Source: a virus | Virus genome (UHGV): UHGV-0173119 | Direction: 5' to 3' (one strand) | Length of the DNA: 48,190 nucleotides | Shown here: piece after piece, positions 1 through 48,190 of the stretch | How the letters are laid out: each line of letters begins with the position of its first letter | Numbering within the stretch: the stretch's first letter is position 1 | Made by a program: the position numbers and the translations under genes | Notes under the pieces: model-generated | What the model saw: only the letters and a program-made list of their open reading frames with translations | Database searches by the model: none | What the model was told of the DNA's origin: nothing

Positions 1-534
1 AAGCTGACGTTTATCAATGGCGCGATCGAGTATGTTCGTGATGCTAAAAACAACGTTATAGGTGCGAAATTCGGGGCCACTAACCGCGCATATATCGACA
101 CGGCTGATTTCATGGAGTCAGGGCTGTCTTTCGAAAGGATCTCCGTAGAAATTGACTTCATAAGCCCGTCAGGACAGTGCTATGTCGTAACGCTCGGTGA
201 AGCAGCGACCGGGGACAGAGCTCTGTATCAGGTAACTGCTGGTCTGCAGACCAGGGGTACTGTTTCAAGCGGTGGCGTGTCTTCAGACCTTATATCAAGT
301 GCCGCATACCCGCTGATTGCAGGCAATGTCTGTAAGTTCAGGCACTCCCTGGATATTCCAAGCAAAGTCGCCAGACTGCGCACGGAAGACGGCTATAAGG
401 TAGGGAATACCAATACCCACCAGATCACCGGCATGTCCTCTTCAATGATCACCAAGATTAAGTTCGGTTATGCATCACCAACCACATTCGGTGGTGATGT
501 AATCGTTAAGCGAGTGCGTATCTCGTTCAGATAA
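1..534 (+). CDS. 3' portion of a large ORF entering from upstream of the window; C-terminal domain of a structural protein (possibly tailspike or receptor-binding protein)
   Basis: Frame 1 is open from nt 1 to the stop at 532-534; no stop upstream of the Met at 112 given in the ORF track; Gly/Ser/Thr-rich beta-type composition. Confidence 0.5.
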   Translation, partial: KLTFINGAIEYVRDAKNNVIGAKFGATNRAYIDTADFMESGLSFERISVEIDFISPSGQCYVVTLGEAATGDRALYQVTAGLQTRGTVSSGGVSSDLISSAAYPLIAGNVCKFRHSLDIPSKVARLRTEDGYKVGNTNTHQITGMSSSMITKIKFGYASPTTFGGDVIVKRVRISFR

Positions 535-2470: not shown

Positions 2471-3415
2471 TTATAAATTAAATTGCTTCTTGAACCATTC
2501 AGGCGTTTCCATTTCGATGACAGGATTACCCATTGAATAACCCGGCCACGAATTGGCTTTTTTGCACGCCTTGTAAATTTCCATTGCACCGTTCAACTGA
2601 ATGCGACCGATTCGCAATTGCTCTTCAGTCAAACGAATCAAAGCAGTAATAAACGGAGATTTCTTTTCCTGAACTAAAAGGTTTACAGAACGCGGCGCAT
2701 GACCATATGCCGCAACAAACATATCGTGTTGCATAGCCATTTTCATAAAGTAGCCAAGTCGCGCAGCGTGACGGAAAAACTCTTCAGGCTTAGCGCTTAC
2801 CGCTGTCTTGTAGTCAATGATGTCACCACCTTTTGTCAGGCAGTCAAAACGAACCTTTGCTTTTTCTCCGTTAAGTTCACCGAGAATTGACACCTCGGAA
2901 TAAGCCCCAGAAAGCAGGCTGCTGTAATAGCTGTTTGCATGGATTACGGCGCGCATCTGCATGATGGCATCATAATCATCGCCTTCCAGCAAAATCCTGC
3001 CTTTCGCATTGAGTTCAGCAAACAGGCGCTCTTCATCATAGATTCTAACTGGCTCTCCAGTTGAGCGGATGATTTTAATCACCTCAGACTTTGTCTTGCC
3101 AGAAAGACCTTTAATTCCTCGCTCTTTTGCCCATGAGTTCATGTCGCTCACAGTAACAAGCAGTTCCGCGCCGAAATCCTCTTTCTTCGGCATGCGGGCA
3201 TATTCTGCCTCGAAGCGCTCAGGTTCAAGCAGAGCTGTATGGCTGCCAGTTCCGAAGACAAGAGCTTTTGACTGCTCATCTTCTTCGTCTTTGTAGCGCC
3301 ATGCTGCTGGGCATCTGTCAAGTATATTCCATAATCCAGAACCATTAATGTGATCTGTGTCAGCATGATAATCCTGATTGCTTAACTCGTTGTTGAAATA
3401 AACTCTCATCATCAC
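2471..3415 (-). CDS. PD-(D/E)XK RecB/Cas4-family exonuclease
   Basis: motifs VRFDCL and GGDIIDYKTA (D...D-x-K) typical of RecB-type nuclease domain. Confidence 0.75.
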   Translation of the reverse strand: MMMRVYFNNELSNQDYHADTDHINGSGLWNILDRCPAAWRYKDEEDEQSKALVFGTGSHTALLEPERFEAEYARMPKKEDFGAELLVTVSDMNSWAKERGIKGLSGKTKSEVIKIIRSTGEPVRIYDEERLFAELNAKGRILLEGDDYDAIMQMRAVIHANSYYSSLLSGAYSEVSILGELNGEKAKVRFDCLTKGGDIIDYKTAVSAKPEEFFRHAARLGYFMKMAMQHDMFVAAYGHAPRSVNLLVQEKKSPFITALIRLTEEQLRIGRIQLNGAMEIYKACKKANSWPGYSMGNPVIEMETPEWFKKQFNL

Positions 3416-4038
3416 TCTCCGTGGTTACAGAATTCTTTATGCATCTTTTCTCTGAATTTCATCACAGACAACCTCGCTCTCTCAATATCACTGAATAACC
3501 CAAGATGGTATCTTTTCCCGTTAACATCACAGTAAGCCTGCCACTTTTTAACCTGTTTTTGCCAATACACGCCTTTAACTCCTGATGTGTTATTTTTTGG
3601 TTTTTTGGCGTTATACTGGTTCTGCATATTTGTTGCGATTCTTAAGTTGCAAATCCTATTATCGTCACGCACACCATTGATGTGATCAATTTGACCTTCA
3701 GGCCAGAAACCATAATAAATCAACCATGCCAAGCGATGCGCGTAGTATCTTTTATTATTTATGCTTATCTCTATGTATCCGTTATGTTTTTTCCTTCCAG
3801 CAACACTACCCTTTCTTACACCTCCACCCGTCTTATTTCTAATGAAAAACCCTGTTTCAGGGTTGTAACTTAAGCTATCCAAAACAACATCACGAGGTAT
3901 TCTTTTTCTTCCGCCTATGGTGTTTGACTCTGCATTTCCCTGAGCAAAATCTTGCTTTTGCAGTTCCGATAAATTCATTTCCGCAAACCTCGCACTTCTT
4001 AACGGTGATAGCCATTTCTTAACCTCTATTGTAATCAT
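3412..4038 (-). CDS. HNH homing endonuclease with AP2 DNA-binding domain
   Basis: AHRLAWLIYYGFWPEGQIDHINGVRDDNRICNLR (HNH_3) followed by AP2-like SGVKGVYWQKQVKKWQAYCDVNGKRYHLGLFSDIERA; alternative start at MNLSELQ. Confidence 0.85.
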   Translation of the reverse strand: MITIEVKKWLSPLRSARFAEMNLSELQKQDFAQGNAESNTIGGRKRIPRDVVLDSLSYNPETGFFIRNKTGGGVRKGSVAGRKKHNGYIEISINNKRYYAHRLAWLIYYGFWPEGQIDHINGVRDDNRICNLRIATNMQNQYNAKKPKNNTSGVKGVYWQKQVKKWQAYCDVNGKRYHLGLFSDIERARLSVMKFREKMHKEFCNHGE

Positions 4039-4083
4039 TTACCGTTACATTGCAAGTAACTTTTATTTGTTACTAACAATACA

Positions 4084-4509
4084 TCAATCTACATCATTCA
4101 GCAAGCCAAAATAGAAAAGCGTGGCTTTTTTTAGTTCATCAAGACCGTAAGCGATGGCAGCATAATGACCAAGTCTGCACATCTCAGTTAATACAGTAGA
4201 TTGCTCCTTGCTCACTCTGCTTTTGCTTTTATCTCGGCGTTTTGCCTCAATCATTCCGCAGCTGTGCTTCACTCCCGGCGTCATTATTACATTGTCGCCT
4301 ATTCCAGTCTTAACGCCCATCTTCTGGCGCTTCAGCACAAACTGCACCCTGCTTGATGTGCCAGTTTCATTCGGGACGTGAAACCAGAGCACATCAGGGA
4401 AACAGTGTTGCATCCATAATCCATAACCCATCTGCTCAGTCTCTTCTTTCGGGCACTCGCCACGATAACCGCTATCAAATACCCATATACCGCTATCAAG
4501 CTGCTTCAC
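4084..4509 (-). CDS. VRR-NUC domain nuclease
   Basis: GIGDNVIM...GMIEAKRRDKSKSRVSKEQ motif (G-x-x-D ... E-x-K) of the VRR-NUC family. Confidence 0.7.
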   Translation of the reverse strand: MKQLDSGIWVFDSGYRGECPKEETEQMGYGLWMQHCFPDVLWFHVPNETGTSSRVQFVLKRQKMGVKTGIGDNVIMTPGVKHSCGMIEAKRRDKSKSRVSKEQSTVLTEMCRLGHYAAIAYGLDELKKATLFYFGLLNDVD

Positions 4510-4519
4510 TTTGTTCTCC

Positions 4520-6421
4520 TTAAAATTCTTTGCGGTGGATTATGTCACGGCCTTTATCGTTAAATCTATGCGTTATGCGCTTTGGCGCTCGGATAAGGCC
4601 AGTAAACGCCATAAATGCTTTTGCGCTGTGGCAATTCATAAGGTTATCGATTAGATTCCTGTCTGATACATGATTTAACAAACCTTTAATCTTGAACTGA
4701 TTTTTCAGATACTTCTCCTTACGATCAAAAGGATAAAATACCTCATTAGCCCATCCATCCTTCCCGTTCTCCTTCGTAATGAAATAACGATAAACAACAC
4801 CTTTTTCATCTTTCGTTAATTCAATCTTGAAGTCTTTAACTTCAGTCCATTCATTATCCGTATAAGCACGCTCATTCAATGCCGCATTCGGGTCGCGCAA
4901 AACATGATCGCAATGGCGGCAATAACGCGCAGTTGGGTCGTTTTTAGTGCCGCAACCATCATCAAAAATACGAATGCCATGCTTATCGAATCCGCAACGG
5001 ATATAACTGAAAAACTCTTCGCAACGACCATCTGGCGACAATGCGTCTTTGCCAATGCAGCGACGCGCATATGGGCTGTTCATGGTTCCGCACTTAGGAC
5101 ACGGAACCTGTTCACCACTTCGTTTTGAACGTTGCGCTTCAGCTTCTTCAAGGATTGGGTCTTCATATAGCTGACCAAGCTCAAACATCGTGCCTGAGAA
5201 ATCAAGAACCAGATGGTCTTCTTTATGATGCCCGGCATCAATTTGCTCTTTCTTCAGCAGGCGCATCCCGCGACCAAGCAACTGAACAAGAAGAGTGAGT
5301 GACATTATTTTTCGCAATATGCAACTCGTATCCCATAGCGGTATATTTACGCCAGTGGTAAGGGCGGCTATCTGGAACGTGAATTTTTTACGCCCGGTGT
5401 ATGCATCTTTTAGAGCCTTCCTTCTGGCTTTTGACCCCATATCTTCTGTAACTATTGAATAACTTCCTTCGGGTAGGTATTTTGCCGCCTCCTGACAATG
5501 TTTTTTACCAGCACATGTAATTAGCACTCCGTTCCTGTTTTTAGTCAATTCCATAACCTTGAGCATGATTTTCTGCGTCAACGTACCTTGCTCAAGAATT
5601 TCTTTCTGCATCTGCTTGAGCTGCTCGGCGGTAAAGTCCTGAGTACCATCAACATCTGAACCATGAAAATCTGAAAGGTCATAGTGCAGACTATCAACAT
5701 CATGAAGACCAAAAATTGTTGGAACAAGAAAACCGTTTTCAACCATGTACTTGGTGTCTATGTTGATAATCTCTTTCTTCCAGAAAGCGCCTTTTATTGA
5801 TGTAGTTCCGCGAAACGGTGAGCCTGTATAACCTATTATTCTCAACTCGTGGCCGTGATTATCTTTGCACCTTTTCATTAGCTCATTAATTATCACTGCA
5901 TACTGCGTATCACCATTATTAACAACATCAATGTCATTAACCATATGATTTTCATCGATAAGCAGGAATCTTGGGCAAAAGTCAGAGAGCGCACCTTTTG
6001 CAATAACATTCCCTGACTCATCCTTTTTATCAAACAAAGCATTTACAACAGTACCCTCAGAGCCACAGATTATTGGGTACGTAGAACTTTTCCTACCCAG
6101 CGAAGCACTGAATAGCGAGTTTCTTACCCCAAGCGACCATAGCTCTTCAGCATCTTGCTCCACTATTTCACCTTGTCTTGATAAAATCATCCCTGAATAG
6201 CCCATCTCCTGAAAACGCTTTGCTATCATGGCAATCATCAGTGACTTTCCGCTACCGACGCTCGCTGTTACATAACTCGGGCCAACATAATGACGAATCA
6301 CATCACCAGTTAACTTGTATATCAACCACTGATAGGGTCTTGGCTCGATATCACCAGTATCCAAGCAGGATTTCAGCAAGTTAATGTCAATCTCTGAAAT
6401 CATTTTGTCTATTTTATGCAT
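4520..6421 (-). CDS. DEXH-box superfamily II DNA helicase with C-terminal Cys-rich zinc-ribbon region
   Basis: motif I ASVGSGKS, motif II LLIDENH, C-terminal CPKCG...CRHCDH clusters. Confidence 0.85.
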   Translation of the reverse strand: MHKIDKMISEIDINLLKSCLDTGDIEPRPYQWLIYKLTGDVIRHYVGPSYVTASVGSGKSLMIAMIAKRFQEMGYSGMILSRQGEIVEQDAEELWSLGVRNSLFSASLGRKSSTYPIICGSEGTVVNALFDKKDESGNVIAKGALSDFCPRFLLIDENHMVNDIDVVNNGDTQYAVIINELMKRCKDNHGHELRIIGYTGSPFRGTTSIKGAFWKKEIINIDTKYMVENGFLVPTIFGLHDVDSLHYDLSDFHGSDVDGTQDFTAEQLKQMQKEILEQGTLTQKIMLKVMELTKNRNGVLITCAGKKHCQEAAKYLPEGSYSIVTEDMGSKARRKALKDAYTGRKKFTFQIAALTTGVNIPLWDTSCILRKIMSLTLLVQLLGRGMRLLKKEQIDAGHHKEDHLVLDFSGTMFELGQLYEDPILEEAEAQRSKRSGEQVPCPKCGTMNSPYARRCIGKDALSPDGRCEEFFSYIRCGFDKHGIRIFDDGCGTKNDPTARYCRHCDHVLRDPNAALNERAYTDNEWTEVKDFKIELTKDEKGVVYRYFITKENGKDGWANEVFYPFDRKEKYLKNQFKIKGLLNHVSDRNLIDNLMNCHSAKAFMAFTGLIRAPKRITHRFNDKGRDIIHRKEF

Positions 6422-7004: not shown

Positions 7005-7955
7005 ATGTTTTACTGGGAAGAGATACAACAAAAGATGATTGGCAACTGGGAGGCGGCACTACTGTCAATAGTCAACATAGACAGGAAGATTTTTTCTGGA
7101 AAACATCAGCCATGCCCTCATTGCATGGGGGTTGACCGGTTTCGTTGGGATAATCACTTCGAAACGAAAGGCGATGGCGGTGCAATCTGCAATCAGTGCG
7201 GTTCCGGTAGCGGCATGAACTGGCTGATGAAACTATCCGGAATGAGCTTTCCTGAAGCACTTGAGGCGCTTGGTGGATTCCTGAACATGAACCCACGCGA
7301 AAAACTGGATGCAATCAGGAAGGAGTTGCCGAAGATAAATTACAACGATGACTTCATCACCGAGCAGGAAGTCGCCGCAATCATGGCTAAAACAACGCGT
7401 GTCGCAATGAATGGGTGGACATTGATAAATGGTATTGGTTGCGACATTAACGTCGTCAGAGGCAAATCTGGAGAGCTTATTGCTGTTGAGATGATGCGCG
7501 CTGACACAATGAAGCCGTGCAACGTGGCATTCATTGGCATGGATGGTGATTCATTCAGAACATTTTTCCGCGCAGGATACAACAAGGACTCAGCCATCAA
7601 CGGTAAACTCACGCGCGGCGCAATAAGCCAAATCGGAGAAGATAACGGAAAGTTCATTTACCTGGTATCTGATTATGCAGATGCGTGGAAGTGCCATTAC
7701 TTCACTGGCGCTCATGTCTGGTGCTGCTGGTCGCCGGAAAACATGTGGGAGGTTGTGCGTTCTGTTAGCGATGAGGTGAAAGCGAGGTTGCGCTGCATAG
7801 TTAATTATAAATTTGACGAACTTTGCGCTGCGGAAAATGCAGGACTACCGGTAATGCTTCCTGATGATGCTGACACAATAAGAATGGCAAAGAGAATCAG
7901 GAGAAAGATTTATGACACTTGCGAGCTGATAGACAAAATGTCAGTCAGCAGATAA
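7005..7955 (+). CDS. DNA primase with Zn-ribbon and TOPRIM-like domain
   Basis: CPHCMGVDRFRW...CNQCGSGSGMNW zinc ribbon as in phage primase-helicases; SD GGAG 5 nt upstream; sole plus-strand gene within the minus-strand replication module. Confidence 0.7.
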   Translation: MFYWEEIQQKMIGNWEAALLSIVNIDRKIFSGKHQPCPHCMGVDRFRWDNHFETKGDGGAICNQCGSGSGMNWLMKLSGMSFPEALEALGGFLNMNPREKLDAIRKELPKINYNDDFITEQEVAAIMAKTTRVAMNGWTLINGIGCDINVVRGKSGELIAVEMMRADTMKPCNVAFIGMDGDSFRTFFRAGYNKDSAINGKLTRGAISQIGEDNGKFIYLVSDYADAWKCHYFTGAHVWCCWSPENMWEVVRSVSDEVKARLRCIVNYKFDELCAAENAGLPVMLPDDADTIRMAKRIRRKIYDTCELIDKMSVSR

Positions 7956-7956
7956 A

Positions 7957-7986
7957 AGAAACCCTCCGACTGGAGGGTTTTTTGTT
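7957..7986. terminator. bidirectional Rho-independent terminator
   Basis: AAACCCTCC-gact-GGAGGGTTTTTTG. Confidence 0.8.
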
Positions 7987-8072
7987 ATTCCTTGAACTAT
8001 GGCGCTTCAGTCCAGAAGGCTACATTTCGCAGCGACTTGCCTGTGTGATCTTTCACATCCATTTTCTTGCCC

Positions 8073-8264
8073 TCACTTAATCATCATCTTTGAAATATCA
8101 ACGTGACCAACACAAAATATGTGCCAGTAATCATCAAGAACGTGGTAATTAGAGCGAATCCATACTTTGTTAATCCTACTCCAGAAAAACCACGTCGAAT
8201 AACCATGCGGCCTGAAATGCCACGAACCTTCTGAGCGACAAAGTTCGCCTGATATTGTTCTCAT
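8073..8264 (-). CDS. hypothetical Cys/His/Trp-rich small protein (63 aa)
   Basis: ATGA start/stop overlap with upstream gene; possibly degenerate. Confidence 0.35.
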   Translation of the reverse strand: MRTISGELCRSEGSWHFRPHGYSTWFFWSRINKVWIRSNYHVLDDYWHIFCVGHVDISKMMIK

Positions 8265-9814
8265 TTCAACCTCGGGTTTATGTGAACAGTATTTCCGATA
8301 AATACGCAGTAACCATCCTCTTCAAGTGATGGCAATACACTTGATCTGAGTCGGTCATAAATTTTAGGTATCCCTTTGAATGGTCGCACGTTTTTAAGTG
8401 AATCATAAAGCCATTTCACCGTTACGTTTGTTTTTCCTTTCTGAGCGGCAGAGCGTAGCTTTTCGGCAACAACATCAAATTCAGAACGCTCGCCAGCATA
8501 TCCATTTGATTCCACGGCGTCGGTGAATGTTTTTGTCAGTGCGTCATAAACACTGATGGCGCGACTAATTTCATTTTCACCGATAATTTTTGAACGTTTC
8601 CCTCCATCGCACCAGTTTTCAGCAGCGTGAAATATTGCTGCCAGACGGATTATTTGCTTATCAGCTTTACCCATCGCGCCACGAAGAAGGACGTGGTCCC
8701 ACTTACCGCCGGGAAGAAAGTTTTTCTCCCACTGGTTTCGCAACAGGCCGATCATTCTTGCTGAGTCGTTGTGAATCGTAAGCCTTGTTTTTTCTGCCGA
8801 AACAACATTATGTATAAATCTTGCATATTCCGACCTCAAGCTGTCTGGCATTGGCTTGCTTACAGGGCAGTCATTAACCATGTCCCAGTGTTCGCGATAG
8901 CCAAGCATTGATTGCTCGCGCAACATCAGGAAACGTTCAGAAAGCCCGTTCCCCCTGTCTCCAGCGGCAAGAATGGCATCAATACTTTCATCCTGCGCAA
9001 TCACACTTATGTTTCCGAGCACGTAACCAGATGAAACGCCACGACCAACACGAGCGGAACCAATGAATCCACCATCCCAGCCCTTCAGGATGACTTCGGC
9101 GTTTGCCTTTCCACCTTCCTTTCCGTAAGAGAGGCCAAGGCATGTGTTAAGAACGCTGGCCTCGTCACTTATCAGATTAAAAAAACCACCTTCATGGATT
9201 GCCTGATGCTGGACAGCCTCCGGCGTTGCGTCCGTCAGTGGATATGTAATCGTATAAAGCTCCTCCAGCTTCTCCTTTTCGCGAGCAATATCATCTCCGA
9301 TTAGTGCCTTTGCATTCTGATTACTGGCCTCTTTGTATGCCTTCATCAGTTCTTCAATGCGAAGATTTATTTTTATGATCTGCTTTTCCATCTTTTTGGA
9401 AAGATTGTCATATTCAATCTTCACCGGATTCATATGCATTGAGTTGATAGCTGTTTTCCCTGCTGATGGAGGCTGAGAAGTAACCACGTAAAGAGAAACT
9501 GGAAGTTCTGAATGGTAATACTCAACGCTAAAGTTTCTCGTCATTGCGCTGGCAACGCAACCAAGTAAATGCATGAACGATGTATTTATTGGGAACTGAA
9601 CAGCGCGAGCTGCAGCGATTGCATAACGAGACAGCAAATCAGTCCGGTGCTCGCTGGTCAGTTCTGTTTCTGAGTACGTTACATCACGCTCCTTACCTTC
9701 CTTGATATCAAGCCACATGTTTGCGCTTGGTGTCATGCCATGATGGAAGGCAACGCGAGCCGGAGATACTTTTAACTCCCTTGCTTCGTTGAAGATGTCT
9801 TGAGCTGTAATCAT
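8261..9814 (-). CDS. DUF3987-like P-loop replication protein (putative helicase or helicase-associated)
   Basis: VSLYVVTSQPPSAGKTAI P-loop preceded by hydrophobic strand, as in DUF3987 proteins that accompany phage primases. Confidence 0.55.
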   Translation of the reverse strand: MITAQDIFNEARELKVSPARVAFHHGMTPSANMWLDIKEGKERDVTYSETELTSEHRTDLLSRYAIAAARAVQFPINTSFMHLLGCVASAMTRNFSVEYYHSELPVSLYVVTSQPPSAGKTAINSMHMNPVKIEYDNLSKKMEKQIIKINLRIEELMKAYKEASNQNAKALIGDDIAREKEKLEELYTITYPLTDATPEAVQHQAIHEGGFFNLISDEASVLNTCLGLSYGKEGGKANAEVILKGWDGGFIGSARVGRGVSSGYVLGNISVIAQDESIDAILAAGDRGNGLSERFLMLREQSMLGYREHWDMVNDCPVSKPMPDSLRSEYARFIHNVVSAEKTRLTIHNDSARMIGLLRNQWEKNFLPGGKWDHVLLRGAMGKADKQIIRLAAIFHAAENWCDGGKRSKIIGENEISRAISVYDALTKTFTDAVESNGYAGERSEFDVVAEKLRSAAQKGKTNVTVKWLYDSLKNVRPFKGIPKIYDRLRSSVLPSLEEDGYCVFIGNTVHINPRLK

Positions 9815-10087
9815 TTAGACCTCGTACTCTGTTTCAAATTTCTCATGAGGATTCTCTGATAACCATTCCTTGGCTCTCAAAACTGCAGCGTTGGCTTCCT
9901 CTGCCGTTTCAAACATACCAAGCTCATATCTTTTCTTGAGTACCATCACTCTCGCTCTGAATTTTTTCGATGCCTTGTGGTAATCAACACCGTAGTATCC
10001 GGTGGTTGATTTTGATGATGCAACCCACCCAGCACCACGACCTTGTTTGTTTAATTTACGCTTTAATAAAACGCCGTGATTGCTCAT
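9815..10087 (-). CDS. free-standing AP2-domain DNA-binding protein
   Basis: GYYGVDYHKASKKFRARVMVLKKRYELGMFETAEEANAAV matches AP2 fold; no HNH motif; first gene of the leftward operon. Confidence 0.7.
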   Translation of the reverse strand: MSNHGVLLKRKLNKQGRGAGWVASSKSTTGYYGVDYHKASKKFRARVMVLKKRYELGMFETAEEANAAVLRAKEWLSENPHEKFETEYEV

Positions 10088-10181
10088 TTCCGCTCCCCAA
10101 TCAACTATTTCCCCAAAAGACTACCACCAATTCCCCAGCATTGCAACACAACTAAAAGCGGCAAAAGGGGTAAATTGGGTT

Positions 10182-10209
10182 AACGTGGGGCAACCAACCT
10201 GCCCCACGA
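10182..10209. repeat. 28-bp repeat copy 1 (AACGTGGGGCAACCAACCTGCCCCACGA) with palindrome CGTGGGGCA-accaacc-TGCCCCACG
   Basis: read directly. Confidence 0.9.
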
Positions 10210-10412
10210 AACCTTCATCTAAGTATATGTAATATAATAAAATTATTATTATTTGGGTTAATGGGTAATATTATTATTCATATTATAGATAGTAATTAAC
10301 ATAATATTAACAAATGGATTATTTAAATATATTTATAAGGGGATGGGTTAGAAATCTGCCCCTTTTTACCCACGAAAAATAAAGATATTCAAATCAATAA
10401 TTTACAATGAAA

Positions 10413-10440
10413 AACGTGGGGCAACCAACCTGCCCCACGA
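10413..10440. repeat. 28-bp repeat copy 2, identical to 10182-10209
   Basis: read directly. Confidence 0.9.
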
Positions 10441-10493
10441 CCTGCCCCACGGTCAAAAATTTACCCCACGAGCACGTTTTTAACGTATTCATG

Positions 10494-10522
10494 TTGACGT
10501 AGAATCATCGCTGATGTAGATT
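10494..10522 (+). promoter_or_regulatory. sigma70-type promoter: TTGACG - 17 bp - TAGATT, both hexamers embedded in GA(C/T)GTAGA repeats
   Basis: TTGACGTAGAatcatcgcTGATGTAGATT, 30 bp upstream of first rightward gene. Confidence 0.6.
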
Positions 10523-10552
10523 GAACTCATCGAAACAAACGAGGGTGAAGAG

Positions 10553-10699
10553 ATGAAAATCAAAGACCGTGAAGAATTTGAAGATGCTCAGGCTATGGCA
10601 CGTATCGCAGTTGATCGCACAAACAACAGCATTCCTGCCGAAGCATTCTGGAACGCAGCAATGCAGTCTTTAATATCAGCGTATGGGTTAAGCAAATGA
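10553..10699 (+). CDS. hypothetical protein (48 aa)
   Basis: SD GAGGG; MKIKDREEFEDAQAMARIAVDRTNNSIPAEAFWNAAMQSLISAYGLSK. Confidence 0.5.
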   Translation: MKIKDREEFEDAQAMARIAVDRTNNSIPAEAFWNAAMQSLISAYGLSK

Positions 10700-10770
10700 C
10701 AGGCGCAACATTCGAACTCATCGCCAGTCTTGTTATCGTGGCATTCATCATCATTGCAGTTTCAAAATAA
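10696..10770 (+). CDS. hypothetical 24-aa hydrophobic peptide (MTGATFELIASLVIVAFIIIAVSK)
   Basis: ATGA overlap with previous stop. Confidence 0.3.
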   Translation: MTGATFELIASLVIVAFIIIAVSK

Positions 10771-10789
10771 GGGTATATGGAGTAACAAA

Positions 10790-10870
10790 ATGAGCAACTG
10801 GCATAACGAACACATCATGCAATGGTATCGCCGTCGCATTAAGGCAATCATTAATTCATTCGAGGTGTAA
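10790..10870 (+). CDS. hypothetical 26-aa peptide
   Basis: SD GGAG upstream of ATG. Confidence 0.3.
   Translation: MSNWHNEHIMQWYRRRIKAIINSFEV

Positions 10871-42546: not shown

Positions 42547-42547
<1 letters not shown>
40097..42547 (+). CDS. tail tape measure protein
   Basis: 816 aa, Ala/Gln-rich coiled-coil, C-terminal Gly/Ala-rich hydrophobic stretch. Confidence 0.9.
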
Positions 42548-46351
<3,804 letters not shown>

Positions 46352-46390
46352 TACAATATACATCAAATTCACAAAGGAGCATTTATTATA

Positions 46391-48190
46391 ATGGCTACCG
46401 TACCAACTAATAAACCAATTCAGTCAGAAGACCCGCGCGACCTGAAATTTAATGCCGGGAAAATTGACGAAGTTGTCAACTCTGACGCTCATTACTACAC
46501 CGATCGCTTTGGTCAGCGCCGCTTGACATCTTCTGGATTTCAGCACGCCGCAGAAGAATCTATCACTGAATTTAAGCACACCGCAGAAGAAGCTATCCGT
46601 AATTATGGCTACATCACAATGGACAGCTTCGAAGATGGCGCGACACTGACGTTGCCTAATCAGGTGCTGAGATATGAAGCCACTGGCGAATATTATCGTT
46701 GGGACGGCGATTTTCCTAAAACCGTGTCTTCTGGCTCAACTCCAGAAACTGCTGGTGGTGTTGGTTCAGGCGCATGGATAAGTGTTGGGGATGCTGCTAT
46801 ACGCAGCGACCTGGCAAAATCCACTGGAGCATCAATGGTTGGGACTGCCTACGGAAAGACCCTCAGCGAGATACTGGAATCCGATCCTGCGCCAATGTCC
46901 TTTGGGTATGCGACTGAGGCAGCCAAAAACAAGCTCTGCCGTCATGGCGCGAAGGTTGTGCTGGTCGGGGATAGCCTCAGCAGCTTCTATAATATTGACA
47001 CTGCCAACATCACGTCGATATTTGAGTCATATCTGCGCAGAAAAGTACAGGAAATTAACCCTACTGCGGTATTCTATAACCGTGCTATTGGTGGCAAGCG
47101 GTATTACGATCTTGGCAGGGATGAGCCAGCACTTAACTCTGATGAAGGCTATCCGTGGTATACGGATACATCGAAGCGCTGGATGTATTATATCGATGAT
47201 ATTAAGCCTGACGTGGTGATTCTGGCATTCGGGATGAATGACGGTGCCAGATGGCTTGCGGGTAACTTCCAACAGCCAAACTTTTATAAAATGATGGACG
47301 AACTGAGAACGATCAGCAGCGAGCCTGAGATTATTTTCTGCACAAACATCCTTCCATCGAAAGACAACCCTGCAACGTCAGATTTTGATCAGCAGTCAGG
47401 TCGCGACGCGATGGCTGGATGGACCCGCTCGTATGCAAAATTCATTGGGGCAAGCTTTATCGACCTGCACCGCCGGTTTAAAGGTATGCGCGATGGAGTG
47501 GATCCTTGTGCTTTCAGTTATGCCCGCAAAACAATATCCACTCTGGTAACTCTGCCATACACCTACACCGAGATGGTGCCGTGCTTTTCAGCCAGACTGG
47601 TGGTAACCGACCCAACGGTGCTAACTGCAGGTATTCAATTTGGATTGTCGCAAGCCCCAAATAATTTTGTCACATTGTCATACGATACATCGCTGTCTAA
47701 GTGGCGTACGCAAGTTTATACAGGTACCTCGGTCGGCCTGACTCTTAACGAACTTGCGGATGGCGCCGCGCCATCCGTGGGTATGGAAATATTATTCTCG
47801 TTGAACGGTGATTCTCTGACGATTTTCATTGGAGATAATACCACCCCGGTGTTCTCCGGTAACATCATACGCTTCGGTGGCCTTTTCACGCCTAAAATAA
47901 GTGGGACTGGGCAGATTAAGGTTGATTTGATTGCAGGAACTGAAATTCCTATGGCTCCTGTATTAACCGACCATGACGTCTATAACACTGAGGGCGATGG
48001 CGGCAATGGCCTAAACCACCCAACCGCGAAAGCCAGCTCAAGAATTTACACACCACCTTTAGATTACTGGTTTGGTAGCTCTGGAGGCAAAGAAAAAAGC
48101 TATGATATCGTTGCTGACTTTATCAGTGGTAAATTAAATGTTTCTAATCATCTGAGTCCTAAATCAGCAGATGTTTCAAACTTATTTGGG
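46391..48190 (+). CDS. tailspike protein, 3'-truncated by window end: endosialidase-type N-terminal domain plus SGNH/GDSL esterase domain
   Basis: EYYRWDGDFPKTVSSGSTPETAGGVGSGAWISVGDAAIRSDL matches the N-terminal domain of K1F endosialidase-type tailspikes; GDSLSS, GGKRY, FGMNDG, DLH blocks of SGNH hydrolases; SD AAAGGAG. Confidence 0.75.
   Translation, partial: MATVPTNKPIQSEDPRDLKFNAGKIDEVVNSDAHYYTDRFGQRRLTSSGFQHAAEESITEFKHTAEEAIRNYGYITMDSFEDGATLTLPNQVLRYEATGEYYRWDGDFPKTVSSGSTPETAGGVGSGAWISVGDAAIRSDLAKSTGASMVGTAYGKTLSEILESDPAPMSFGYATEAAKNKLCRHGAKVVLVGDSLSSFYNIDTANITSIFESYLRRKVQEINPTAVFYNRAIGGKRYYDLGRDEPALNSDEGYPWYTDTSKRWMYYIDDIKPDVVILAFGMNDGARWLAGNFQQPNFYKMMDELRTISSEPEIIFCTNILPSKDNPATSDFDQQSGRDAMAGWTRSYAKFIGASFIDLHRRFKGMRDGVDPCAFSYARKTISTLVTLPYTYTEMVPCFSARLVVTDPTVLTAGIQFGLSQAPNNFVTLSYDTSLSKWRTQVYTGTSVGLTLNELADGAAPSVGMEILFSLNGDSLTIFIGDNTTPVFSGNIIRFGGLFTPKISGTGQIKVDLIAGTEIPMAPVLTDHDVYNTEGDGGNGLNHPTAKASSRIYTPPLDYWFGSSGGKEKSYDIVADFISGKLNVSNHLSPKSADVSNLFG

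Follow-up and report, generated by a model that had tools for sequence, protein, structure and literature searches.

The 48,190-nucleotide (nt) viral genome UHGV-0173119, referred to below as the window (the whole stretch of DNA that was analysed), ends inside an open reading frame (ORF) that starts at position 46391 and that a preliminary description, made from the letters alone, had read as a tailspike joining an endosialidase-type N-terminal domain to an SGNH esterase domain. This locus raises the question of whether the tailspike gene is whole, which residues could make its product an esterase and what such an enzyme would act on at the host surface. Our analysis shows that the gene is whole and encodes the receptor-binding tailspike of an Escherichia coli/Shigella-type siphophage of small size. 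Its product is most likely an esterase tailspike, which would strip O-acetyl groups from a host surface polysaccharide and would not cut the chain.

The tailspike ORF begins with an ATG at 46391-46393, 39 nt past the TGA stop of the upstream gene (46349-46351), and a Shine-Dalgarno sequence, AAGGAG, is read at 46374-46379 (+ strand), 11 nt before this start codon. It then continues without a stop for exactly 600 codons, up to base 48190, which is the right edge of the window. These codons 1-600 (46391-48190, + strand) are defined by the open translation, the ATG with its ribosome-binding site and matches in Pfam and PHROG. The phrog_17220 profile (length 868) matches the tailspike with E=9e-127: its positions 215-675 correspond to amino acids (aa) 136-595, and its positions 682-857 to the product of an ORF at the opposite edge of the window (1-534, + strand), which is open in frame 1 and would supply codons 601-777 and the stop (532-534). 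Homologues from Kayfunavirus BDX03P1 (860 aa) and phage anhysbys (691 aa) run colinearly through the junction without a gap (NLFG, junction, KLTFINGA versus NLFTKLTFINGA). The gene order over the junction, J-like tail protein, tailspike and convergent SSB gene, is also that of the closest genomes. These alignments show that the left-edge ORF is the C-terminus of the same tailspike, giving a full-length protein of 777 aa. With the gene continuous over the junction, the 48.2 kb of the window represent a whole genome in circularly permuted form. The suggestion that the gene is cut by the window edge and resumes at 1-534 if the molecule is circularly permuted was therefore correct.

At the sequence level, the SGNH hydrolase assignment is well founded. 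Pfam places Lipase_GDSL_2 (PF13472) at aa 192-365, with 56.4 bits for a cut-off of 32.9 (E=7.2e-15), and also reports Lipase_GDSL (PF00657; 27.5 bits for a cut-off of 23.6); in NCBIfam, the only match was a sub-threshold one to an acetylxylan-esterase model (25 bits, cut-off 700). Every string quoted in the preliminary description is present in the protein: EYYRWDGDFPKTVSSGSTPETAGGVGSGAWISVGDAAIRSDL at aa 100-141, GDSLSS at 193-198, GGKRY at 234-238, GMNDG at 281-285 and DLH at 358-360. Among 36 family members, down to 21% identity, G193-D194-S195, G235, G281-M-N283 and H543 are invariant, and D284 is retained in 35. The RDGxD motif (aa 367-371), located where the chain exits the SGNH core, and a GGN motif are likewise found in all 36 proteins. 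Together with the Pfam matches, the invariance of Ser195, Gly235 and Asn283 confirms the SGNH/GDSL core and the blocks GDSLSS, GGKRY and GMNDG.

By contrast, the choice of DLH as the fourth SGNH block had to be abandoned: His360 is replaced by Asn in eight of the 36 members, which are the eight most distant ones, whereas His543 never varies. Alignment to PDB entry 3p94 shows that DLH corresponds to the common "vDlh/vDyH" string that lies ahead of block V in ordinary SGNH enzymes. The invariant His543 sits in GGNGLNHPTAKAS, just before the closing helices. On the intact protein, the Lipase_GDSL_2 match stops at position 155 of the 178 in the profile. When aa 367-532 were removed in silico, this match extended from profile positions 2-155 to 2-174 and its score rose from 59.8 to 63.1 bits; with the same splice, Lipase_GDSL went from positions 1-102 to 1-204 of 208 and from 29.9 to 34.7 bits. 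In a profile built from 16 spliced family members, the His543 of NHP aligns with the His of DGVHPT in 3p94. On this sequence evidence, block V is GGNGLNHP, located about 180 aa downstream of DLH, with His543 as its predicted catalytic His. A catalytic Ser and a catalytic His are thus both present on alignment, although the His lies elsewhere than first proposed. In the resulting site, the predicted nucleophile is Ser195 and the predicted general base His543, with Gly235 and Asn283 as the presumed oxyanion hole, as judged from invariance and profile alignment and not from geometry.

The position of block V implies an interrupted catalytic domain, and structure prediction agrees with this. An AlphaFold2 model computed on 36 homologues (mean predicted local distance difference test score, pLDDT, 84; predicted template-modelling score 0.73) comprises helices at aa 16-71, a small beta domain at 75-131, an alpha/beta region at 188-367, an all-beta region at 370-520, two helices at 546-562 and a second all-beta region at 573-776, and the SGNH part has the expected three-layer alpha/beta/alpha fold. 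All segments of the receptor-binding part are encoded on the + strand. The first part of the SGNH domain (aa 186-369; 46946-47497) carries Ser195 (codon 46973-46975), Gly235, Asn283 of GMND and RDGxD. It is followed by an inserted lectin-like domain of the ConA/LamG/galectin type (aa 370-525; 47498-47965), which is supported by AlphaFold2, Foldseek and the splice test and consists of strands only, with pLDDT mostly at 85-95; a Pfam Cyclophil_like match within it was disregarded as sub-threshold (E=0.01-0.08). The second part of the SGNH domain (aa 526-566; 47966-48088), delimited by residue invariance, the splice test and the 3p94 profile, holds block V with His543 (codon 48017-48019) and the closing helices. 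The SGNH domain is thus split by a lectin-like domain of about 156 aa just ahead of block V. A C-terminal beta-sandwich starts at aa 567-600 (48089-48190), as seen in the AlphaFold2 secondary structure and in two-domain lectin matches of Foldseek, and continues at aa 601-777 (1-531), where AlphaFold2, Foldseek and family identity define the rest of this lectin-like domain, the most variable part of the module. In Foldseek searches the beta-sandwich region resembles tandem galectins, LamG pairs and ConA-like viral proteins. Compared pairwise, family members share on average 69% identity in the SGNH core versus 48-56% in the beta-sandwich domains, the C-terminal one standing at 48%. Taken together, sequence, profiles and model show that, after a hinge at about aa 150-165, the protein consists of a carbohydrate esterase module made of a split SGNH fold with an inserted beta-sandwich, followed by a second beta-sandwich.

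We then asked which characterised proteins share this module. The preliminary description had cited the Vi-phage acetyl esterases and the G7C-type O-antigen deacetylase as examples of esterase tailspikes; the closest characterised relative is neither G7C gp63.1 nor a Vi-phage esterase, but gp66 of Pectobacterium phage Possum. The family hidden Markov model (HMM) matches residues 414-813 of Possum gp66 with 277 bits over profile positions 9-392, with the same motifs; tblastn gives 28% identity over aa 180-557, and a Foldseek search of BFVD aligns the two over 794 columns with E=1.3e-38. A recombinant fragment of this protein (Delta-gp66) is trimeric and takes the 2-O-acetyl group off the rhamnose of the host O-polysaccharide without depolymerisation, as established by nuclear magnetic resonance (PMC9569702). 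Full-length structural comparison against the PDB ranks two other esterase tailspikes first, B2 gp48 (E=1.3e-15) and G7C gp63.1 (E=1.8e-14). For the esterase domain, homology to G7C gp63.1 at the sequence level was rejected: the family HMM scores gp63.1 at 2.4 bits and phmmer finds only its N-domain, so that the likeness is one of fold and architecture. The B2 and Moo19 spikes hydrolyse p-nitrophenyl acetate, and both phages need O-acetylated O-antigen (PMC11654681). Deacetylating tailspikes are common in surveys (PMC13123978).

The family itself is large. A word-indexed search recovered 38 homologues of the receptor-binding part, which are carried by at least five anchor types (PF18668, T7-tail PF03906, tail-collar PF12571, PF12708 and PF27114). 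In a HMMER scan of 1.84 billion cluster representatives at 50% identity, 292 matched with E<=1e-10; among the 150 matches listed, the majority contain SGNH, insert and block V in one stretch (query positions ~18-389). One member, in the K1F-like podophage Kayfunavirus BDX03P1 (locus 2629-5211), has an esterase module 64% identical over aa 45-599 behind a T7-type tail-fibre N-terminus, in the place of the K1F endosialidase; a literature search returned no paper on the host of BDX03P1.

How this module would be carried on the virion is suggested by the N-terminal part. Over 70-79% of a 24-kb query, the genome shares ~90-91% nucleotide identity with Escherichia phages Bas77-81 (Skatevirus cluster), phage C1 and Shigella phage Sf11, and the protein would be the single side tailspike of a Skatevirus/Cedarrivervirus-like siphophage. 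Directly upstream lies the gene of an 829-aa J-like central tail or baseplate hub protein (43862-46351, + strand; phrog_469, E=6e-252). The same order is found in Bas77 and Sf11, a conserved position for the receptor-binding gene, and tailspikes encoded immediately 3' of the J-like gene are described in the BASEL paper (PMC11990801). The first 163 aa match Sf11 gp13 (PDB 9occ_G) in phmmer with E=1.2e-70, and the first 40 are 90-95% identical to Sf11 and Bas77. In the Sf11 cryo-electron microscopy structure, gp13 residues 4-59 make up a helical bundle together with an adaptor helix supplied by gp17, the distal tail protein, Arg16 and Lys19 of gp13 make salt bridges with gp17 Glu129/136/147/152, and six gp13 trimers per virion are hinged near residue 162 (PMC12724387). 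Arg16 and Lys19 are both present in the N-terminal anchor helices of the tailspike (aa 1-72; 46391-46606, + strand), a segment delimited by phmmer to Sf11 gp13 and whose docking role is taken from the Sf11 study (PMC12724387). With regard to Sf11 gp13, the anchor helix contains an 11-aa insertion, AAEESITEFKH (aa 53-63; 46547-46579), which resembles a locally duplicated copy of the TAEEAI segment next in the sequence; it would add about three helix turns.

The docking partner is also encoded in the window. A tblastn search with Sf11 gp17 identified a short distal tail protein gene (157 aa; 42547-43020, + strand) with an adaptor helix for tailspike docking: 42547-43011 shares 94% identity with gp17 residues 1-155, a stretch that contains the adaptor helix, and Glu129, Glu136 and Glu147 are kept while Glu152 is replaced by Asp. 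This protein ends right after the docking helix and lacks the ~300-aa C-terminal appendage of Sf11 gp17 (457 aa); Bas77 has a 457-aa gene at this position. The appendage thus appears dispensable for carrying a tailspike. By comparison with Sf11, the tailspike would trimerise, its N-terminal helices (aa ~4-59) would bundle with the adaptor helix of the 42547-43020 product, and six trimers would surround the tail tip.

The anchor is followed by a Tail_spike_N domain (aa 73-150; 46607-46840, + strand), defined by Pfam, phmmer, alignment to K1F and the identity profile discussed below. Pfam locates PF18668 at aa 74-134 with 68 bits for a cut-off of 25 (E=7.5e-19). The match of the N-terminal ~135 aa to the K1F endosialidase N-domain, as initially described, is real for aa 73-149, which are 56% identical to K1F gp17 residues 150-226 (E=3e-27), whereas aa 1-72, an anchor specific to siphophages, have no K1F counterpart. 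The term "endosialidase-type" is nevertheless too narrow, as the segment is the generic PF18668 module, known as the N-terminal domain of CBA120 TSP1 and G7C gp66: matches of this domain in a PDB sequence search include CBA120 TSP1/3/4, 4qnl (G7C gp63.1) and 9vvr. No endosialidase catalytic domain or C-terminal chaperone domain was found in the tailspike by Pfam scan or PDB sequence search.

With the anchor and the catalytic module defined, a mode of action can be proposed. By analogy with Possum gp66, G7C gp63.1 and B2 gp48/49, the two beta-sandwich domains would bind the surface polysaccharide and the SGNH site would remove its O-acetyl groups without cutting the chain. Deacetylation would make binding reversible and processive and so carry the tail tip down to the outer membrane; there, the next step would fall to the J-like hub. 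The prediction of an acetylated polysaccharide receptor, already made from the esterase tailspike assignment, is supported by the combination of Tail_spike_N and SGNH esterase domains. As judged from the same analogues, the substrate would most likely be an O-acetylated O-antigen.

To narrow down this receptor, we considered bacteria that carry the module in prophages. In two complete E. coli genomes, lambdoid prophages inserted at yciB/ompW/trp encode a "GDSL-type esterase" tail protein straight after TipJ (MDK9L1 locus 8479-10824; FDAARGOS_1250 locus 7479-9827). These two proteins are 87-97% identical to tailspike aa 160-777 and 92% identical to each other. The O-antigen cluster of MDK9L1 has wzx/wzy of the O13/O129/O135 family, which we take to specify a Shigella flexneri-type rhamnose backbone, and that of FDAARGOS_1250 has an O7-family wzx with vioAB. 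No serogroup could be assigned from the prophage hosts, which point to O13/O129/O135 and to O7 despite their 92%-identical proteins. The receptor could accordingly be an O-acetylated O-antigen epitope common to several serogroups or a common acetylated glycan, or else the pairing of prophage and host could be uninformative.

Several observations weigh against an esterase tailspike acting on O-antigen as outlined here. The two prophage hosts with ~90%-identical modules disagree in their O-antigen cluster. The closest relative with biochemical data, Possum gp66, is only about 28% identical. The canonical Asp three residues before the block V His is absent: residue 540 is Gly here, and this position is Gly in 29 of the 36 family members, Asp in five, Asn in one and Lys in one. 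The enzyme would consequently be a Ser-His dyad or make use of another acid. Some SGNH carbohydrate esterases are such dyads, and the sequence offers a candidate catalytic acid in the invariant D368 and D371 of RDGxD. The Ser195-His543 pairing is a predicted one, drawn from conservation, the splice test and profile alignment. Finally, trimerisation and six-fold decoration are carried over from Sf11, Possum and G7C, and, with the gp17 appendage missing, docking geometry could differ from that of Sf11.

The prophage data bear most directly on a different receptor for the same enzyme, namely a serotype-independent acetylated glycan such as colanic acid, enterobacterial common antigen or capsule. 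~90%-identical modules (aa 160-777) occur in strains with different O-antigen clusters, both of which have a colanic-acid cluster (acetyltransferase genes wcaB and wcaF seen in FDAARGOS_1250; only the end, wcaK-wcaM, viewed in MDK9L1), and a 59%-identical homologue is present in phage anhysbys, which was isolated on the O-antigen-less K-12 strain MG1655 (PMC11990801 for the K-12 phenotype). A prophage host is, however, weak evidence for a receptor, and anhysbys has several receptor-binding proteins. O7 and O13-type O-units contain L-rhamnose, so that an epitope shared by both is possible. Furthermore, the close genomic relatives Bas77-81 and Sf11 show strict O-antigen dependence and a narrow host range (PMC11990801; PMC12724387), and Possum gp66 and the structural analogues act on O-antigen. 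We consider a serotype-independent receptor unlikely. A broader proposition, which we regard as distinctly improbable, is that the spike belongs to a large, essentially unstudied esterase subfamily (at least 292 clusters at 50% identity) with a lectin-like insert before the catalytic His and a dispensable triad Asp, whose E. coli substrate is perhaps enterobacterial common antigen or colanic acid, independent of serotype, or an acetyl-rhamnose epitope of several O-types; either substrate would imply an unusually broad host range for a one-spike siphophage.

Two other readings concern the enzyme itself. The missing block V Asp and the interruption of the fold by 156 aa would both suit an inactive SGNH scaffold in a protein acting purely as an adhesin through its lectin-like domains. 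However, an inactive scaffold would hardly keep Ser195, Gly235, Asn283, His543, RDGxD and GGN invariant in 36 proteins down to 21% identity, nor have the SGNH core as its most conserved part (69% versus 48-56%), and Possum gp66, which has the same interrupted architecture, is active; we judge this reading very improbable. It would be equally surprising if the protein were a lipase or acyl-hydrolase working on lipid A or outer-membrane phospholipids, or an acyltransferase, and not a polysaccharide O-acetylesterase: the best structural matches are carbohydrate and peptidoglycan acetylesterases, two lectin-like folds of carbohydrate-binding type flank the SGNH domain, and the member with data, Possum gp66, is a polysaccharide deacetylase. 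These comparisons favour a deacetylating tailspike, with O-antigen as its most likely target.

The identity profile of the tailspike indicates how the esterase module came to lie behind an Sf11-type anchor. Identity to Sf11 and Bas77 is 90-100% over most of the first 120 aa and is gone past aa ~160, with partners of Skatevirus type giving way to those of prophage type between aa 121 and 160. Past aa ~160, E. coli proteins match best: identity to P0001 reaches 97-100% over aa 201-400, and over aa 481-680 it is 92-97% to P0002 and to the prophage protein of MDK9L1. This switch places the left crossover where the Tail_spike_N domain ends. For this position, a published proposal holds that a conserved DNA motif helps receptor-binding domains to be exchanged (PMC10408124). 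The receptor-binding module (46991-48190 and 1-531) is itself mosaic, as aa 481-720 are nearer to P0002/MDK9L1 (92-97%) than to P0001 (80-92%).

On the other side of the gene, the distance from the tailspike stop to the SSB gene is ~390 nt (spacer 535-923) versus 42 nt in Bas77. This spacer contains a 62-aa ORF on the - strand (539-727), convergent with the tailspike gene. This ORF is what remains of a tail-tip (J-like) gene of Nonanavirus/Sashavirus type, from which only part of the 3' end is left: it matches phrog_469 at positions 846-896 (E=3e-11) and, by blastn, shares 79-86% nucleotide identity with the tail-tip genes of 9NA, Sasha, AVIO78A and BDX09P1. The relic is absent from Bas77. An origin as an inverted repeat of the J gene of the window was rejected, as blastn found nothing and blastp gave E=0.11. 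In AVIO78A, the tailspike and tail-tip genes are natively convergent; given this arrangement and the relic, the right end of the cassette was most likely imported from a Nonanavirus/Sashavirus-type phage. The receptor-binding part was thus acquired as a cassette, with ~190 nt of a Nonanavirus-type tail-tip gene coming along on the right.

Two further features were noted around this spacer. In the Nonanavirus Escherichia phage KarinMuster_Bas82, a short SSB gene lies between the tail fibre and tail protein genes (4006-4398), and part of this region matches the SSB end of the window. This gene may be a reciprocal scar, in which case tailspike cassettes may have been exchanged both ways between Skatevirus-like phages and Nonanavirus. 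At 896-911 of the window, between the J-gene relic and the convergent SSB gene, there is a GC-rich hairpin with a T-run (CCCCGCTTCTGCGGGG TTAGTTTTAT), plausibly the late-operon terminator, although such sites are no commoner in the region than in shuffled sequence.

As deacetylating tailspikes are a recognised alternative to depolymerases, one more is not surprising: the esterase strategy is already known, and this gene adds a member to a family in which one relative, Possum gp66, has been characterised. What the analysis adds is of several kinds. The annotation can be completed, as the whole gene (777 aa) wraps around the contig ends and the predicted catalytic residues, as targets for mutagenesis, are S195 and H543, not H360. 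A large unannotated set of phage and prophage proteins (phrog_17220, "GDSL-type esterase") becomes tied to one characterised enzyme, and the near-identical modules of lambdoid prophages show that temperate phages share the module. An Sf11-type docking system, a mechanism only just described for this tail type, accepts an esterase module in place of a glycan-hydrolysing tailspike, which bears on host-range engineering of small-siphophage chassis. The tail-tip relic and the Bas82 SSB gene, for their part, suggest that cassettes have moved both ways between two groups of siphophages.

Compared with known systems, the tailspike combines parts that are found separately elsewhere. With gp66 of Possum (Cbunavirus, Schitoviridae), it shares GDS, GG, GMND, DxNR, RDGxD and GGNGxNHP, a Tail_spike_N-type attachment domain and the same interrupted SGNH architecture, which is active in gp66; Possum gp66 differs in its alpha-helical N-terminal extension, used on a podophage with an adapter protein, and has another C-terminal domain, another host and another O-antigen. 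The esterase spikes of two N4-like podophages, gp63.1 of E. coli phage G7C (PDB 4QNL) and gp48/gp49 of Shigella phage B2 (PDB 9D84), have a similar fold, but their esterase parts show no detectable resemblance in sequence. The SGNH domain of G7C gp63.1 is contiguous and lacks an inserted domain; its block V is the canonical DTTHP, separated from block III by ~90 aa. K1F gp17 (Kayfunavirus) has the Tail_spike_N domain in common with the tailspike but a T7 gp17-type N-terminus, and its catalytic part is a sialidase with a C-terminal chaperone. The "GDSL-type esterase/lipase family protein" of E. coli lambdoid prophages (phrog_17220) has a near-identical module behind N-terminal anchors that fit other tail types. 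Gp13 of the Shigella siphophage Sf11 (PDB 9OCC) represents the converse case: anchor (aa 1-163), distal tail adaptor helix, post-J position and a backbone of ~90% nucleotide identity are all shared, whereas past the hinge gp13 is described as P22/Sf6-like and as hydrolysing lipopolysaccharide (PMC12724387), and the tailspike described here bears the esterase module instead.

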